From: Minisyncoccota bacterium
Lineage (GTDB): Bacteria; Patescibacteriota; Minisyncoccia; Minisyncoccales; RBG-13-42-11
Reading direction: 5' to 3'
DNA length: 64,000 nucleotides
Assembly: GCA_016782605.1 (NCBI GenBank)
Contig: JADHYE010000001.1
Coordinates: forward strand, 78,473-142,472
Under the pieces are notes generated by a model, which worked only from the letters and a program-made list of their open reading frames with translations, made no database searches and was not told the DNA's origin. Each line of letters begins with the position of its first letter. Within the stretch, counting starts at the first letter, position 1. Below are positions 30,916 to 62,688 of the stretch, piece by piece. The position numbers and the translations under genes were made by a program.

Positions 30916-33723
30916 TTATCCTTGCTTTAAATATCTGCCGGTATAGCTCTTTTTACTCTTGGCAATTTCAGAAGGAATACCCTCAGCAATAATGTATCCT
31001 CCCTTTTCGCCTCCTTCCGGCCCCAAATCAATAATCCAATCAGCATTCTTAATAAAATCCAGATTATGCTCGATTGTTACAACTGTATTTCCCTTTTCAA
31101 CCAGGCCTTTTAAAACCTGTATCAGTTTTTTAATGTCGTCAAAATGAAGACCGGTGGTCGGCTCGTCCAGAATATACAAGCTCTTGCCTGTCGCTTTTCT
31201 GGAAAGCTCGGTAGCTAGTTTCACTCTCTGTGCTTCTCCTCCAGAGAGCGAGGGAGCTGGCTGTCCCAACTGAATATAGCCCAAGCCGACTTCGTTCAAA
31301 GTTTTCAATTTCTCATAAAGACCAACGATATTTTTGAAAAAGTCCAAAGCTTCTTCTACCGTCATTTCAAGAACCTGGGCAATGTTTTTTCCTTTATATT
31401 CAACTGACAAAGTTTCCTTATTAAATCTCATACCTTTGCAATCTGAACACTGTATATATATGTCAGGCAAAAAGTACATTTCTATCTTTTTCACTCCCTG
31501 GCCTTCGCAGCTTTCGCATCTTCCTCCTTTAACGTTAAAGCTGAAACGGCCGGGTCTGTACCCCCTGACTCTCGCTTCTTTGGTCTTGGTAAACAAATCC
31601 CGAATGTATGAAAAAGCGCCTGTGTAAGTGGCAGGATTTGACCTGGGAGTTCTGCCTATCGGCGACTGGTCAACTAAAACTACTTTATTTAAAAATTCGG
31701 CTCCCAGAATTTCTTTGTGTTGCCCCGGCTCTTCTTTGGCCCTATAAAACTTTTTTAACAGGGCGCGGGCCAGAACGTCGTTCATCAAACTGCTTTTGCC
31801 GGATCCTGAAACTCCGGTAATACAAACGAACTTAGCTAAAGGCATTTTCACGTCAATATTCTTTAAATTATGCTCTTTTGCCCCCTTAACAATTAAATAA
31901 TTTTGCAGGATTTGTTTAGGCCTGGCCTCAACAGCATGTTGAGGTTTAACCTCAACGGTTTTTCTTCCGGAAAGATACTCGCCGGTCAAAGAACGTGATT
32001 CCAACAATTGTTTTGGCGTACCCTGGAAAACGATCTTGCCGCCGTGTTTGCCGGCTCCCGGCCCAATATCAACCACCCAGTCGCTCTGCAAAATAGTCTG
32101 GCGGTCGTGTTCGACAATAATAATCGTATTGCCTAAATCCTTGAGCTTTTCCAAAGTCTGAATCAAACGGCCCTGATCTCTGGCATGTAGCCCAATTGAA
32201 GGCTCGTCTAATATATAAAGTACTCCTGTCAGTTTTGAACCTATTTGCGTGGCCAGCCTTATCCTCTGTTCTTCGCCCCCTGCCAAAGTGTCTGATTTCC
32301 TGTCCAAAGTCAGATAATCCAAGCCAACATCAATTAAAAACTGCAACCGGTTTAAAACCTCTTTGATAATGAGAGAAGCGATTTTCAATTCGCTGTTTTT
32401 TAATTTAGAATTACGGCTTTTGATTAAACTTTCAAAAAACTCCTGGACCTTATTAATCGGCGTACCAACAATCTTATCAAGAGACAAACCAGCTACTGTA
32501 ACAGCCAATATTTCCGGCTTCAATCTCTTGCCCTGGCATATTTCGCACTGCTTTTCAACCATGTACTGTTCTATTTCGCTTCTGGTGTAATCGGAATCCG
32601 TTGCATGATATCTCCTTTCCAAATTAGGAATCACTCCTTCAAAGTCAGCATTACCCTGCAATATCAAATCAATGATTTTCTTTGGCAGTTCTTTGACCGG
32701 AATATCTAAAGAAAATTTATGCGTTTCTGCCAGCTTTTGCAGATGGGACCAGAAATACCCCTGCCTGCCGATTTTATGAGAAGCAAAAGCCCAAGGGAAT
32801 ACAGCTCCTTCGGCAATCGTTAAGTTTTGGTTTGGTATGACGAGCTTTGGATCAACTTCCAGCCTTTCCCCCAACCCCTGGCAGGAAGGGCAAGCGCCGA
32901 AAGGAGAATTGAAAGAAAACAATCTCGGCTCAAGTTCCGACAAAGAAAGCCCGCACTCTTCGCAGGCAAAATGCTCGGAAAAAATAAAATCATTGTCTTT
33001 TCGGCTTACCATTACTATGCCTTTCCCCAATTTCAAACCTGTTTCCAAGGAATCAATTAATCTTGATTTATCCAAACTCTTGTCTAAAACCAATCTATCA
33101 ACAACCACTTCGATATTATGCTTTTTATTTTTGTCCAAGGTTTTATCAATAATCTCTTCAATACGATGAACAACACCATCTACCCTGACCCTGACAAAAC
33201 CTGCTCTCTGCGCCTCTTCCAGAACTCCCCTGTGCTCTCCTTTCTTGCCCCTGACCAAAGGGCCGAGAATACTAATCTCGCTTTTCTTTGGAAGATTCAG
33301 AATCTGCTCTGTGATCTGATCTATTGTCTGCCGACTGATTGGCTTGCCACATTTTGGACAATGGGGCTTACCAATTCTGGCAAACAAAAGCCGGAGATAA
33401 TCATATATCTCTGTTATCGTACCCACAGTTGAACGAGGATTATGGGAAGCTTTTCTCTGATCGATTGAAATTGCCGGACTAATGCCTTCGATATAATCGA
33501 CGTCTGGCTTATCCATAACTCCCAGAAACTGCCTGGCATAAGCAGAAAGAGATTCAACATATCTTCTCTGGCCCTCAGCGTATAGAGTATCAAAAGCTAA
33601 AGAAGACTTGCCAGAGCCTGAAATGCCGGTAATGACCACCAGCTTGTCTTTCGGGATATCAAGGTTGATATCTTTTAAGTTGTGCACTCTTGCTCCGCGT
33701 ATTTTAATGTAATTTTCAGCCAT
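30916..33723 (-). CDS. uvrA: Excinuclease ABC subunit A
   Basis: Two ABC ATPase modules (GISGSGKSS and GVSGSGKSS) plus zinc modules. [17 protein letters not shown] from the ATG at 33723. The track ORF starts at a TTG at 33735. Confidence 0.96.
31926..31956. repeat. REP-like triple-arm palindrome embedded in frame in uvrA
   Basis: CCTCAACAGCATGTTGAGGTTTAACCTCAAC. The 20-mer TGTTGAGGTTTAACCTCAAC is identical to the intergenic palindrome at 57642-57661. Confidence 0.75.
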
Positions 33724-33758
33724 AAGAGTATTCAATTATACTGCAAATTTAAAAAAAA

Positions 33759-57640: not shown

Positions 57641-57663
57641 TTGTTGAGGTTTAACCTCAACAA
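57641..57663. repeat. REP-like perfect palindrome
   Basis: TTGTTGAGGTT-T-AACCTCAACAA has 11-bp arms. It is preceded by the near-duplicate half ATTGTTGAAGTT. Confidence 0.8.
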
Positions 57664-57665
57664 TC

Positions 57666-58025
57666 CTAAACGATGTTTTCGTAGTAATTTAAACGCTCAA
57701 TAGTATAGTTTTTTCTTAAAACAATGCATATGGCGTCTATTCTATAAGAATTTTTCCACTTGGCTCTGGCTACATAGGCCGCGGCGTTACCCCGAAGCTT
57801 TTTCAATTTCTTTTTGTTGATGGTTTCTTCCGGAGCCCCAAAATCTTCCCCCACTTTCGTTCTCACTTCCACAAATATCATTTCATTTTTATGCCTGACA
57901 ACTAAATCAATCTCAGCATATTTTGTTTTGTAATTTTGTTCAATTATTTTATATCCTTTTTTCTCTAAATACTCCTTTGCGATCTTCTCACCCACCTTCC
58001 CCGTCGCCAAATTAGACTGTTTCAT
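57666..58025 (-). CDS. yraN: YraN family (UPF0102) endonuclease-like protein
   Basis: 119 aa with GEKIAKEYLEKKGYKIIEQNY...EIDLVV...MIFVEVRTK. Confidence 0.85.
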   Translation of the reverse strand: MKQSNLATGKVGEKIAKEYLEKKGYKIIEQNYKTKYAEIDLVVRHKNEMIFVEVRTKVGEDFGAPEETINKKKLKKLRGNAAAYVARAKWKNSYRIDAICIVLRKNYTIERLNYYENIV

Positions 58026-59547
58026 ATATTTTTGGCCGGTACTGCAGGGCCTCGGCCATATGAGAAACAGTTATTTCCGACGCACCCTCCAAATCAGCAA
58101 TGGTTCTGGTAACTTTTATCAATTTCATATAAGACCTTGCGGATAATTGAAATTTCATACTCGCTTGCTTTAAAAGTTGTTCCACTTCTTTTGTCAGTTT
58201 GCAATATTTTTTAATGTGACTGTTTTTCATTTGGGCGTTGGATTGAATAGATTCTCCCTTCAAACGCTTCTCCTGCCTTTCCCTTGCCAGAATTACTCTT
58301 TTTCTGATTGTCTTCGACGATTCCAAAAATTCAGAGGCTTTTTGATTTTCTGAAAATTCTTCTACATTGACCGGCTGAACGGTAATGTGCAAGTCAATTC
58401 TATCCAAGATGGGCCCTGAAATTCGCTTTTGATATTTTCTTATCTGACGGGGAGTGCAAACGCAATTTTTCTTCGGATGATTCAAATAACCGCAAGGACA
58501 GGGATTGGCAGAAGCCACAAGCATAAAATCCGCAGGGTATCTTACTATTTCTTTACTTCTTGAAATAGTAAGATAGCCTTCCTCCAAGGGCTGACGCATT
58601 GCCTCCATGACTTGTCTCGGGAACTCATTAAATTCATCGAGAAAGAGAACCCCCCGGTGAGCCAAACTTATTTCGCCGGGGTGCGGTCTTGTGCCACCGC
58701 CGATTAGTCCTACTGGAGAAGCTGTGTGGTGCGGCACTCTGAATTGTCGATAAGTTATTACAGAGCCTCCTGGAGGAATATTGCCTGCTACAGAATATAT
58801 TTTAGTTACTTCTAACGATTCTTCTTCGGTTAAAGGAGACATAATCCCAGGCAAAGCTCTGGCCAACATTGTTTTTCCGGAACCCGGACTTCCCACCATA
58901 ATAATATTATGGCCGCCAGCTGCCGCTATCTCTGCTGCTCTCTTTGCTTGTTCTTGCCCTAAAATTTCTTTCATATCAAACTCTGCCGGAATAGGCAATC
59001 TGTCTTCGGGTTCTTTATAAACAGCAGGTTCAATTAATTTTCTTCCTAAAAAGTGCGAAATAAGTTGAAAAAGATTTTCTACTGGATATACTTTTATTCC
59101 CTTGATCACCGCTGCTTCGTTTGCTGAATCTTTGGGAACAAATAAATTTTTAAACCCTTTTTCTTTGGCAAAAAGCGCCAGCAGAAATGCTCCTTTTGTG
59201 TGCCTTAAAGAACCATCAAGCGATAATTCCCCGAAAAACAGAGATTCTTCAGGTATGTCAAATTGCAAAATACTTCTCAAAATCCCCAAAGCAATCGGCA
59301 AATCGTAAAACGAACCTTCTTTGGGGATATCAGCCGGCGCCAAATTGACGGTAATTTTCTTTGCCGGAAACTCAATGCCCGAACTTGAGATTGCAGCCCT
59401 AACTCTTTCTTTGCTTTCATCCACCGCTTTGTCTGGAAGACCGACAATTTCAAATCCAGGCAAGCCCCTGTTTGCCAAATTCACTTCAACATCCACTTTA
59501 ATTGTTTCCAGCCCTGAATTAGCGGCTGATGGAACTTTAACTAACAT
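58012..59547 (-). CDS. comM: YifB/ComM family Mg-chelatase-like ATPase
   Basis: 511 aa with a Lon-like N-terminal domain and AAA+ motif GSPGSGKTMLA. Confidence 0.9.
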   Translation of the reverse strand: MLVKVPSAANSGLETIKVDVEVNLANRGLPGFEIVGLPDKAVDESKERVRAAISSSGIEFPAKKITVNLAPADIPKEGSFYDLPIALGILRSILQFDIPEESLFFGELSLDGSLRHTKGAFLLALFAKEKGFKNLFVPKDSANEAAVIKGIKVYPVENLFQLISHFLGRKLIEPAVYKEPEDRLPIPAEFDMKEILGQEQAKRAAEIAAAGGHNIIMVGSPGSGKTMLARALPGIMSPLTEEESLEVTKIYSVAGNIPPGGSVITYRQFRVPHHTASPVGLIGGGTRPHPGEISLAHRGVLFLDEFNEFPRQVMEAMRQPLEEGYLTISRSKEIVRYPADFMLVASANPCPCGYLNHPKKNCVCTPRQIRKYQKRISGPILDRIDLHITVQPVNVEEFSENQKASEFLESSKTIRKRVILARERQEKRLKGESIQSNAQMKNSHIKKYCKLTKEVEQLLKQASMKFQLSARSYMKLIKVTRTIADLEGASEITVSHMAEALQYRPKIYETV

Positions 59548-60433
59548 AATATTTATTGCCCTCTTGTTGGATGAAGCCTTTCAATTGCATTAAAGATAAA
59601 GTTGTGCCAATCTTCGCGGCCGGCAATCCGAAAATCCTGGCTAAAGCATCTGTTTCCATCGGTTCTCTTTGCAGCTGTTCTAAAATTTTCCCCTCAATAC
59701 TCCCATTAAGAAACTTAGTTCCTTTTTTGGAAACTAAGTTTCCAAGTTTTTGGGAAACACCGTAAAATTTCAATATCTCTCCTGCGTCCGTCGCTACCTC
59801 AGCTCCTTCTTTTAAGAGCTGCGAAGTTCCTTTTGACACTTCGCTTGTGATGGGACCCGGCACGGCGAATATTTTCCTTCCGAATTTTTTGGCAAATTCT
59901 GCCGTAATCAATGTTCCGCTGTTTAATCCAGCTTCTACAATCAAAACCGCTTTTGAAAGACCAGCCACTATCCTGTTTCTTTTGGAATAAGTCCAATTGG
60001 CTGGCGGAAATTTTCCCTCAAACTCGGAAATAATCAATCCTTTATTTTCCAGAATTTTATTATAAAGTTCTTCTTGATATTCAGGATGTATCATATTTAT
60101 TCCGCAAGGCATTACAGCTATTGTTCTGCCCCCCACTTCTACCGTGGCCTTATGAGCGGCCTCATCCCCACCATACATAAATCCGGAAACTATAGTTACG
60201 CCAGCTGCCGCAATTTCTGTTACTAATTGCTCTGTTATTTTCCTTCCGTAACTGGTCAAACGCCTTGAACCGACTACCGCCAAACAATTATCAAAAATAT
60301 CGTCTTTACCCTGAGCCGTACCAAAGGGCCAATCGCCCTTATAATAAAGTTTTTCCGGTGCCTCTTTGCCAATTTTCTTTAACAACTCCGGATATCTTTT
60401 ATCTTGTATATTTATTGTATTTCCCTCCTCCAT
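59537..60433 (-). CDS. dprA: DNA processing protein DprA
   Basis: VVGSRRLTSYG...SGFMYGGDEAAHK...GTLITAEFA. The start is taken at the ATG at 60433 (MEEGNT). The track's TTG start at 60457 lies inside the REP palindrome. Confidence 0.9.
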   Translation of the reverse strand: MEEGNTINIQDKRYPELLKKIGKEAPEKLYYKGDWPFGTAQGKDDIFDNCLAVVGSRRLTSYGRKITEQLVTEIAAAGVTIVSGFMYGGDEAAHKATVEVGGRTIAVMPCGINMIHPEYQEELYNKILENKGLIISEFEGKFPPANWTYSKRNRIVAGLSKAVLIVEAGLNSGTLITAEFAKKFGRKIFAVPGPITSEVSKGTSQLLKEGAEVATDAGEILKFYGVSQKLGNLVSKKGTKFLNGSIEGKILEQLQREPMETDALARIFGLPAAKIGTTLSLMQLKGFIQQEGNKYYVS

Positions 60434-60438
60434 AGATT

Positions 60439-60459
60439 TGTTGAGGACTCTCCTCAACA
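60439..60459. repeat. REP-like palindrome
   Basis: TGTTGAGGA-CTC-TCCTCAACA has 9-bp arms. Lies in the comFC-dprA spacer. Confidence 0.75.
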
Positions 60460-60464
60460 GTCAA

Positions 60465-61121
60465 TTAAACGGTGCGGGCGAGAGTAAAACCCCAAACTTT
60501 TTTCACTCCCGACCTTTTTAATACCCTGCAACATTCTTGCATCGTCGCTCCGCTTGTCCAAACATCGTCTACTAAAAGGACATCTTTTGTTAAGGATTTG
60601 TTTAGGCCTGGCCTAAACAAAGCAAAGCTATCCTTGACGTTTATTATTCTCTCTTTTTTGCTCAATTTAGTTTGAGATGGCGTATCTTTTATTTTTTCAA
60701 CCAAGGATAATACTTCTCTGCCGGTTATTTCACCCACCTTTTTAGCAATCAACTCCGCCTGATTAAATCCTCTTCGTTTTTCTTTTTTCTTGAACATCGG
60801 CACAAAAGTTATTGTCGTGTCTTCCGGAATATACGGTTCTCTTATCTCAAAAGCCTTTGCAACAAGTTCATTTATCGCATCAAACATACTTTCGTATTTA
60901 ATTTTAAAAATAATATTTTTAATTAATCCTTCGTACTCCCACGCACTAACAACTTCTTCTAACCCGCCTGCCATAAAAACATTTGGGGCTTCGGAAAGAA
61001 ATAAACCGCATTTTTCACAGATATATTTTCCCTCTTTTCCGCACGCCACACACGTTCTGGGCAATAAAATATCTATTATATTTTCTTTTATATTTTCTAA
61101 TATTCTAGAAATTTCCCGCAT
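60465..61121 (-). CDS. comFC: ComF family (ComFC-like) phosphoribosyltransferase-domain protein
   Basis: N-terminal CxxC...CxxC and a C-terminal PRT motif VLLVDDVWTSGAT. Confidence 0.85.
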   Translation of the reverse strand: MREISRILENIKENIIDILLPRTCVACGKEGKYICEKCGLFLSEAPNVFMAGGLEEVVSAWEYEGLIKNIIFKIKYESMFDAINELVAKAFEIREPYIPEDTTITFVPMFKKKEKRRGFNQAELIAKKVGEITGREVLSLVEKIKDTPSQTKLSKKERIINVKDSFALFRPGLNKSLTKDVLLVDDVWTSGATMQECCRVLKRSGVKKVWGFTLARTV

Positions 61122-61126
61122 GTGTT

Positions 61127-61149
61127 TTGTTGAGGATTCGCCTAAACAG
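61127..61149. repeat. REP-like sequence flanking the transposase at its 3' side
   Basis: TTGTTGAGGATTCGCCTAAACAG. It is an inverted copy (19 of 23) of 61876-61898. Confidence 0.75.
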
Positions 61150-61152
61150 ATT

Positions 61153-61866
61153 TCAATCTTCTAGTGTTAATTTTCCTAATTTATTGCTTAGTTCTATTCT
61201 GGTAAGGCATTGTTCGGAAAATTCTTTATACTCCTCTGGTCCTGAGAATAATTCCCCTAAAATATCTTTATCAATTATCGGTGAATTTCTTTCTCCCGCA
61301 TAATCCCCTAAGCTACTATAAGGATATTTAATGGCCCACTCATACGCCTTATCAAAGTTTCTAATCGCTTCGTTCAAACCACCGGGATAAAGTTCAAATA
61401 CATTTTTTACTTGAATATAAACACTTAAATATTTAAAATATATTTCTTCGTTAATTAATTTTGATTTATATGGTCCTTGAAATAATCTTCCCGTTTCCTG
61501 ATATTTTTCATTAAAATAAGTTGCCATTCCCGTACCTAATCTCCTCATAAATTTTGTAATGCCACCTTCCCGTATTTCTTTTAAGAATAAATGAAAATGA
61601 TTTTCCAAAAGAGAGAATGCCATAATTTTTACAAGCGGTTTTCGTTCTGGCCAAGTTAATGGCCTAATAAATGGTTTGTTTGGGCCAGTCTTAAACAATT
61701 TCTGGACGTCACGGAATGGATTCATTAAAGTAAATTCATCGTTAAAATAATACAGCATTTCAAGAAAATGCCATTTATCCTTAGAATCACAAACTATCGG
61801 CTGCTTTCTATTACCCCTGTTGTAAATGTGCGCGAATGAATCTATTGTAATTTTCTCTTTTCTCAT
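61153..61866 (-). CDS. Y1/HUH transposase of the IS200-like / REP-associated tyrosine transposase (RAYT) type
   Basis: 237 aa with AHIYNRGNRK, HUH motif NHFHLFL, GRLFQGPYKS, and Tyr motif YLSVYIQVKNV. Flanked by inverted REP-like sequences. Confidence 0.75.
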   Translation of the reverse strand: MRKEKITIDSFAHIYNRGNRKQPIVCDSKDKWHFLEMLYYFNDEFTLMNPFRDVQKLFKTGPNKPFIRPLTWPERKPLVKIMAFSLLENHFHLFLKEIREGGITKFMRRLGTGMATYFNEKYQETGRLFQGPYKSKLINEEIYFKYLSVYIQVKNVFELYPGGLNEAIRNFDKAYEWAIKYPYSSLGDYAGERNSPIIDKDILGELFSGPEEYKEFSEQCLTRIELSNKLGKLTLED

Positions 61867-61876
61867 TTTTTTGGTT

Positions 61877-61898
61877 TGTTTAGGCGAATCCTAAGCAG
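61877..61898. repeat. REP-like sequence flanking the transposase at its 5' side
   Basis: TGTTTAGGCGAATCCTAAGCAG. Confidence 0.75.
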
Positions 61899-62457: not shown

Positions 62458-62482
62458 GATGGAGAGGTAAATCCTCTCCATC
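62458..62482. other. Perfect 10-bp stem hairpin
   Basis: GATGGAGAGG-TAAAT-CCTCTCCATC. Confidence 0.7.
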
Positions 62483-62491
62483 TGCGCCTCC

Positions 62492-62513
62492 TGTGTAGGC
62501 GAATCCTCAACAA
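62492..62513. repeat. REP-like sequence (contains GTAG)
   Basis: TGTGTAGGCGAATCCTCAACAA, in the same orientation as 61877-61898. Confidence 0.75.
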
Positions 62514-62688
62514 AGCATTGTTATGGATAAAAAATTAAAATGCTTATAATGGTCTATTTTTATAAAAAAATTCTCGCTTTTATTTACAAATATCTTTTTG
62601 GTGGCTAATACTAAAGAAAACAACTGTATCGTCTCGAAAATAAAATATTATGGAATTCAATTCGCAAATTAGCACTATTCAAAAAGAT

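Follow-up and report, generated by a model that had tools for sequence, protein, structure and literature searches.

Does a member of the Patescibacteria possess an enzyme of the kind that accompanies repetitive extragenic palindromes (REPs), together with palindromes of its own? This question is raised by a 64,000-nt stretch of a Minisyncoccota genome (contig JADHYE010000001.1, positions 78,473 to 142,472; hereafter the window), in which a gene encoding a 237-aa Y1/HUH protein (61153..61866, minus strand) lies between short palindromes. The initial annotation viewed this arrangement as a REPtron, i.e. as the gene of a REP-associated tyrosine transposase (RAYT) flanked by inverted REPs. This view stands as far as an HUH/Y1 enzyme of the RAYT kind flanked by palindromes is concerned, but the palindromes are low-copy and the protein lies outside the curated RAYT equivalog. 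Taken as a whole, the data lead us to consider, with a probability of about 0.7, that the locus is a vertically inherited REPtron-like unit made of the single-copy gene of a Y1/HUH single-stranded DNA (ssDNA) endonuclease/transposase and of its own recognition hairpin.

The gene was assigned to a TnpA_Y1 class-2-like, RAYT/TIRYT-like type on the basis of Pfam, invariant alignment columns, an AlphaFold (AF2) model and Foldseek comparisons. Both motifs initially recognized in the 237-aa open reading frame (ORF) are present: N89-H90-F91-H92, within NHFHLFL, and Y150-IQVKN. An alignment of 22 homologues (A1), which also served as input for the AF2 model, indicates that N89-H-F-H92, Y143, Y146, Y150, Q152 and N155 are invariant. 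In this model (predicted local distance difference test score, pLDDT, 79.5; predicted template modelling score, pTM, 0.80), H90-F-H92 is found at the start of strand 91–97, whereas Y143, Y146, Y150, Q152 and N155 are found within helix 141–157. An insertion of about 40 aa precedes the HUH strand. The search with hidden Markov models (HMMs) that had been suggested as a check gave a divided answer: the protein exceeds the cutoff of Pfam Y1_Tnp (PF01797; 25.6 bits versus 23, the alignment being limited to aa 79–152) but falls far below that of the RAYT equivalog NF047646 REP_Tyr_transpos of NCBIfam (15.9 bits versus 80). No helix-turn-helix or DnaA_C tail was detected in the protein by the Pfam search. 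Searches of the PDB with the protein and with alignment A1, by sequence and by profile, returned nothing relevant, so that the fold search alone was informative for the structural match. The top Foldseek match of the AF2 model is 4ER8_A (E 2.5e-4), the complex of the E. coli TnpAREP with a REP hairpin, and the IS608, ISDra2 and Sulfolobus IS200 transposases come next; the leading entries, 4ER8, 2A6M, 2XO6 and 2VJV, all have a probability of 1.00; hhalign aligned A1 with the 4ER8 sequence over the HUH strand alone. The 237-aa protein therefore combines the features by which the superfamily is recognized, namely a Y1_Tnp gathering score, an HUH motif on a beta-strand, a tyrosine helix and a TnpA-like fold.

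The window contains a single Y1 gene; in some genomes, two or three diverged Y1 paralogues are present. The family to which it belongs is large and tightly conserved; its relatives form 276 clusters (50% identity) at E <1e-30 within a wider superfamily of 15,160 clusters at E up to 1e-3. A word index gave 561 matches and, among the 120 matches listed, identity is 55–86%, most of these sequences coming from metagenome-assembled genomes (MAGs) labelled Patescibacteria or Omnitrophota; the window itself comes from a Candidatus Pacebacteria MAG. Some MAGs carrying the patescibacterial-type gene and operon (loci L021, L023, L027, L030 and L059-L073) are titled 'Planctomycetia', 'Gammaproteobacteria' or 'Saccharibacteria' in third-party annotation (TPA) assemblies, and these labels look unreliable. 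The family also includes a decayed member: in the Parcubacteria genome GW2011_GWA2_38_13b (L067, 10001-10395), a Y1 pseudogene has an in-frame stop and lacks the region corresponding to aa 43–153 of the query while retaining its 3' hairpin, TTGTTGAAGTTTAACTTCAACGA. A hairpin-mediated deletion was ruled out in this case, which is a plain pseudogene with no hairpin at the junction.

In the window, the gene is bracketed by two cognate hairpins. One of them, TTGTTGAGGATTCGCCTAAACAG (61127..61149), lies 3 nt past the stop codon, occupies the spacer that separates the Y1 gene from comFC and has one G.A mismatch in its stem. The other, TTGTTTAGGCGAATCCTAAGCAG (61876..61898), lies 9 nt before the ATG in inverted orientation (loop CGAAT versus ATTCG). 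The inverted copies initially described are confirmed: once the second is reverse-complemented, it agrees with the first at 19 of 23 positions (inverted pair I9; 21 nt, 90%). This pairing is real, but a distal upstream copy (62491..62517), which hardly folds alone, pairs better with 61123-61149 (pair I1; 27 nt, 93%). Likewise, the two flanking copies do fold as the imperfect hairpins that had been proposed but, at -3.6 and -4.6 kcal/mol when folded as DNA, they are the weakest of the family. A third copy, decayed and in-frame, is found inside the gene (61676..61698; TTGTTTGGGCCAGTCTTAAACAA on the plus strand). It starts 169 nt downstream of the first base of the gene and encodes LFKTGPNK, which falls in a low-confidence surface loop of the AF2 model.

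The contexts of homologous genes were gathered by identical-protein look-ups and a scan of GTDB genomes (78 loci; loci are designated here by L numbers), and the hairpins of 46 full-length homologous genes (38–80% identity) were surveyed. All 46 genes are preceded, at 20–150 nt, by a cognate hairpin specific to the genome. The same hairpin is found on both flanks of 42 of them, so that they share the REPtron layout of the window; the downstream copy usually begins 0–25 nt after the stop codon. Furthermore, 30 of the 46 possess a third copy inside the gene, in-frame, which starts 160–184 nt after the first base and is always read in one frame. The hairpins of the family have a stem of about 9–10 bp, a loop of 3–5 nt and a (C/T)TGT...ACA(G/A) foot that is part of the stem, but their stem type varies from one genome to another (TGTTGAGG, TGGAGAGG, GGTTGAGGC, TGTCGGTAT, TGGCGGTAT, TGTAAGGGC, GTGCTTCAC and others). 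Paralogues of the same genome carry distinct types (L015; L018 versus L048). The relative orientation of upstream and downstream copies was judged by comparing loops: 15 loci have inverted pairs and 11 have direct ones, three being ambiguous; inversion is therefore not universal.

Covariation was examined with one hairpin per locus (36 loci). The two arms of the 10-bp stem are paired in 93.5% of the cells, a percentage that is partly built in because the hairpins were chosen by a hairpin finder, whereas slid controls pair in 30–43%. Double changes affect all 10 pairs, and none of the 500 shuffles reached the observed covariation; the compensatory changes between genomes are unaffected by the selection made by the finder. 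The internal copy matches the flank of its own locus at a median of 20 of 21 positions, versus 11 of 21 for the flanks of other loci, and its own flank is its best match in 27 of the 34 loci. It encodes the sole variable stretch of the protein alignment (LKSDFNR, MERSNLSK, LFRPGLNK and so on), which corresponds to a low-confidence loop (aa 51–70; pLDDT 56–58) located N-terminal to the HUH strand, within the insertion mentioned above. The three hairpin copies thus evolve in concert within a genome, the internal one at an orthologous coding position. That a fixed in-frame copy evolves together with the flanks provides indirect but strong evidence that the enzyme still interacts with the hairpin sites. 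In one homologue, P0074, an insertion of about 40 aa made of repeated RSNL/LRSNLD units is found at the site of the internal hairpin (columns 90–135 of A1) and resembles the in-frame translation of several hairpin copies in tandem. The possibility that a stop codon bars the internal copy in the clade with the GGTTGAGG-type hairpin was dropped, as no stop arises with the correct frame.

The way in which this unit is inherited can be traced through its neighbours. The co-directional genes located downstream of the Y1 gene (57666..61121, minus strand), a context common to the whole dprA-linked clade, are successively comFC (60465-61121), dprA (59537-60433), a comM/Mg-chelatase-like gene (58012-59547) and yraN/UPF0102 (57666-58025), the last gene of the operon; no tnpB adjoins the Y1 gene. 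The order Y1-(comFC)-dprA-comM-yraN was found in 16 loci (41–80% identity). In a neighbour-joining tree, the dprA-linked genes are near-monophyletic, with L022 and the short contig L027 nested inside and L057 apart. The single copy in the window and this near-monophyletic syntenic clade correspond to the single-copy, vertically transmitted state of RAYT genes. The proximity of comFC-dprA had been singled out as notable; the adjacency is real and kept in these 16 loci but is limited to one clade. Indeed, other clades that have the same hairpin design adjoin Wzy_C/TPR, rpsL, rplJ, rpoD, pgk, yceG, PfkB, PemK or TaqI_C genes and, for this reason, the dprA linkage is clade-specific rather than family-wide. 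It is most simply explained by vertical inheritance in compact genomes.

Hairpins of the window type also occur away from the flanks of the gene. The 16-mer shared by the two flanking copies, AGGATTCGCCTAAACA, is found six times in the window with at most three mismatches, versus 0.76 expected, and none of 100 shuffles reached six. Copies of the TGTTKAGG-N5-CCTMAACA type start at 31913, 31937, 57642, 60439, 60599, 61128, 61877 and 62492, to which the degenerate internal copy at 61676-61698 can be added; the recurrence of the arms nearby and in uvrA, noticed at the outset, thus holds for both places. Seven of these nine copies lie within 5 kb, between yraN and the gene of a DUF6922 protein. Apart from those described above, they consist of a hairpin in the spacer between comFC and dprA (60438..60460; -8.0 kcal/mol), which like the spacer between Y1 and comFC is 31 nt long, a perfect in-frame copy inside comFC (60598..60620; -9.7 kcal/mol) and a perfect hairpin located directly after the stop codon of yraN, at the end of the operon (57641..57663; -10.2 kcal/mol). 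The copy of comFC encodes LFRPGLNK, a peptide that is also encoded at the internal hairpin site of P0005, a Y1 homologue sharing 80% identity. The other two copies, 24 nt apart, form an in-frame doublet (31912..31958) in a linker of a 939-aa ORF (30916-33735, minus strand), presumably uvrA, a name that comes from the initial annotation alone. This doublet encodes 15 residues that follow a segment ending in '...LSGRKTVEV'. The doublet and the copies at 57642, 60439 and 60599 fold strongly as DNA (-8 to -10 kcal/mol for these three copies, -8 to -12 kcal/mol altogether; z -3.8 to -6.4). No window-type copy was found in the 7.9 kb beyond the window, to which the hairpin counts were extended. The hairpins were ruled out as intrinsic terminators, as they have no T-runs and received no call from a terminator scanner, and as a known RNA family, as an Rfam search gave four tRNAs alone.

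A perfect hairpin of another type, ATGGAGAGG-TAAAT-CCTCTCCAT (62459..62481), is found beside the decayed distal copy at 62491-62517. Relative to the window type, its stem is doubly compensated (TT>GA with AA>TC), and it corresponds to the type that is cognate in L007/L018, where the orthologue is 69% identical; this hairpin could be a relic of the local type or an alternative to it.

In orthologous loci, extra copies are found at matching junctions, between dprA and comM and after yraN, the latter in L014-L017, L019-L021, L023 and L025. In other loci, copies are found in three successive spacers (L115) or inside ORFs (L144 and L149). On a 404-kb contig (Ga0209310_1000020; L130, 7066-9420), three successive spacers upstream of a Y1 gene contain three inverted doublets (loops TCAAA/TTTGA, copies 41 or 61 nt apart), and this gene also has upstream and internal copies; this can be regarded as the layout most similar to REPINs found in the Y1 family. 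A metagenome scan for TGTTGAGG-N5-CCTCAACA gave at least 80 loci, a number unusable as a census since most of them are single, background-like matches without a nearby Y1 gene; about 10 multi-copy loci were informative. In six near-identical contigs obtained from different samples, hairpins were neither gained nor lost and no insertion polymorphism was observed.

Several observations weigh against the REPtron-like reading. The high-copy dispersed palindrome expected of a RAYT was not found in the parts of genomes that were scanned, as seven of the nine copies in the 64 kb are near the gene and the hairpin type cognate to one Y1 gene was missing from the other 20-kb locus sampled in its genome in seven of eight tests. 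Hairpins are thus rare away from the gene, and the classic genome-wide proliferation of REPs is not seen. The conserved unpaired guide tetranucleotide (GTAG, or 5' GT[AG]G) was not found at the feet of the family hairpins. The tyrosine motif, YIQVKN[VP], has one residue more than the Y---NP motif of class 2; because of this departure, catalytic competence is assumed rather than established. Mismatches of the stem on the sense strand are more often G.T than A.C (42 versus 22), an excess that hints at some selection at the RNA level. The inflation of the pairing percentage by the hairpin finder is to be counted on the same side.

From homology and co-evolution, we nevertheless infer that the protein acts on the hairpins, i.e. 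binds and cleaves them, and the following model can be drawn. By analogy with the TnpA proteins of IS608 and ISDra2 and with the TnpAREP of E. coli, the protein would bind the hairpin folded on ssDNA. Cleavage and rejoining would then occur next to the hairpin foot and would involve a tyrosine of the helix, Y150 or Y146. Hairpins would be copied or converted in this way, mostly at short range, so that every copy would stay matched to the specificity of the enzyme. Given the partial decay of the copies close to the gene and the degenerate state of the internal one, the system of the window may be barely active. A bolder version of this model, in which the internal hairpin would be no tolerated insertion but a functional self-recognition site through which the enzyme would act on its own gene (autoregulation, or a self-conversion by which gene and sites would stay matched) and the enzyme of the dprA clade would be coupled to transformation and recombination through ComFC, DprA, ComM and YraN, seems unlikely; if true, self-recognition and coupling would give Patescibacteria a sequence-specific step in the handling of incoming or gapped DNA.

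Could the locus rather be an active IS200-like insertion sequence (IS), whose flanking hairpins would be subterminal ends and whose unit of about 0.8 kb would transpose? The TnpA proteins of the IS200/IS605 group, such as those of IS608 and ISDra2, recognize subterminal hairpins on ssDNA, and the window protein has a Y1_Tnp domain and shares their HUH/Y1 fold. Hairpins at both ends are the layout of these elements, 11 of the 26 pairs that can be oriented have the direct orientation of an IS, and members of the family lie between unrelated housekeeping genes. However, the gene is present in a single copy in 64 kb, whereas ISs of this group are found in multiple identical copies; the paralogues of one genome share only 39–50% identity and have differing hairpins; the dprA-linked clade holds one syntenic position over a range of 55–80% protein identity; hairpins are also found without a Y1 gene; and the six population contigs lack insertion polymorphism. 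Moreover, the protein displays class-2 motifs (NHFH and FQ) and not the Y---Q motif of IS200. The earlier view that this is not an ordinary IS200/IS605 element with tnpB is also borne out by the best structural match (4ER8), by the lack of an adjacent tnpB and by the lack of a second copy in the window. This explanation therefore appears highly improbable.

It has also to be considered that the hairpins could be RNA-level elements of operons (mRNA stabilizers, processing sites or translational couplers) independent of the Y1 protein. They do occur behind stop codons and in the short spacers that separate co-directional genes, the excess of G.T mismatches on the sense strand would fit such a role, and Di Nocera et al. 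2013 (PMC3733652) make the case that RNA is the form in which many REPs act. On the other hand, a different Y1 paralogue comes with a different hairpin type, which brackets the Y1 gene in every context examined, the in-frame copy within the gene evolves in concert with the flanks, and neither a T-run, a terminator-like call nor an Rfam match was obtained. Independence from the Y1 protein is thus quite unlikely; an RNA role could coexist with the REPtron-like unit. The third alternative concerns the dprA-linked clade alone, in which the Y1 enzyme and its hairpins would be a working part of the natural transformation/recombination machinery and would act with ComFC, DprA, ComM and YraN on incoming or gapped ssDNA. 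The partner genes all act on single-stranded or recombining DNA, their order relative to the Y1 gene is kept in the 16 loci, and the hairpins punctuate exactly the comFC-dprA-comM-yraN operon and also occur in the presumed uvrA. Nevertheless, sister clades with the three-hairpin design adjoin rpsL, rplJ, rpoD, pgk, PfkB or surface-protein genes, synteny is expected from vertical inheritance alone in compact genomes, and an uptake signal would call for a far higher density of hairpins; this role is very doubtful.

How does the REPtron-like unit compare with known systems? The REPtron, reportedly known from work by Nunvar in 2010, Ton-Hoang in 2012 and Bertels and Rainey, is a RAYT/TnpAREP gene flanked by REPs or REPINs, as for YafM of E. 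coli (PDB 4ER8). The window family resembles it by its Y1/HUH fold, of which 4ER8 is the top match, by short flanking palindromes of which further copies exist elsewhere, in some cases as inverted doublets, by hairpin types specific to each paralogue and by a single-copy gene transmitted vertically in one clade. It differs from it by a protein that fails the RAYT equivalog HMM, by hairpins devoid of a GT[AG]G foot, by the small number of hairpins, a few per tens of kb near the gene versus tens to hundreds of REPs genome-wide, and by its host phylum, Patescibacteria.

Quentin et al. 2018 (PMC6006769) divided TnpA_Y1 into subclasses, among which subclass 2.1 (group 1 of Bertels) largely consists of the TIRYT or 'TIRtron' genes of Di Nocera et al. 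2013 and is reported to be without REPs; its signatures are NH[YF]H, 'FQ' replacing W, Y[IV]HLNP, a conserved tail serine and a length whose median is 238 aa. With NHFH, RLFQG, S185 in its tail and 237 aa, the motifs of the window protein resemble those of this TIRYT-like subclass, not those of the RAYT groups of E. coli and Pseudomonas, and its flanking repeats are low-copy, as are terminal inverted repeats (TIRs; Di Nocera et al. 2013, PMC3733652). It differs by its tyrosine motif, YIQVKN[VP], by the insertion of about 40 aa and by the true flanking hairpins of its family. More distant patescibacterial relatives (24–35% identity) have the full 2.1-like set (YHVYNRGN, NHFH, GRLFQG and YIH[LR]NP), and many of them are flanked by shared hairpins, e.g. 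TCAACCCCNGGGGTTGA. The window family can therefore be regarded as a derived branch, characterized by the insertion with its hairpin-encoded loop and by YIQVKN[VP]. In-frame REPs inside their own tnpAREP gene are known only from subclass 2.4 (group 4 of Bertels), where they are found at variable places between HuH and Y (PMC6006769). In both cases, the cognate palindrome is in-frame in the gene of the enzyme and encodes a peripheral loop, but the window family has one fixed site, N-terminal to HuH and read in the same frame, in 30 of 46 genes. As for the doublet in the 939-aa ORF, intragenic REPs are frequent in excision-repair genes, including excinuclease genes (Di Nocera et al. 2013, PMC3733652).

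Literature searches for a RAYT-type system of Patescibacteria or for a link of such a system with dprA found nothing relevant among the papers searched. Patescibacteria have tightly packed genomes of about 1 Mb, so that the retention of such a unit would not be expected by default. Systems made of a REP/RAYT-type enzyme and hairpins would thereby be extended to this phylum, and a lineage having the motifs of a supposedly REP-less subclass does carry cognate hairpins. With its compensatory stem changes, this natural collection of more than 40 enzymes, each paired with a hairpin, constitutes a ready data set on how HUH proteins read hairpins, which bears on HUH-tag and ssDNA tools. The stable place of the gene before dprA-comM offers a testable link between the supply of ssDNA and the activity of the enzyme.

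Upstream of the Y1 gene, two small genes (62414-61924, minus strand) lie between the distal and proximal upstream hairpins. One of them encodes a protein of the DUF6922 family (67 aa; Pfam 8.8e-14) and the other is an ORF of 85–88 aa without a Pfam match; just upstream of both, a promoter-like, TG-extended site is found (62449 to 62421, minus strand). A second, unrelated family of short hairpins, AAAGGAGC-TWA-GCTCCTTT, was found at three positions of the same operon in a different lineage (L012; 11243, 13870 and 14003).

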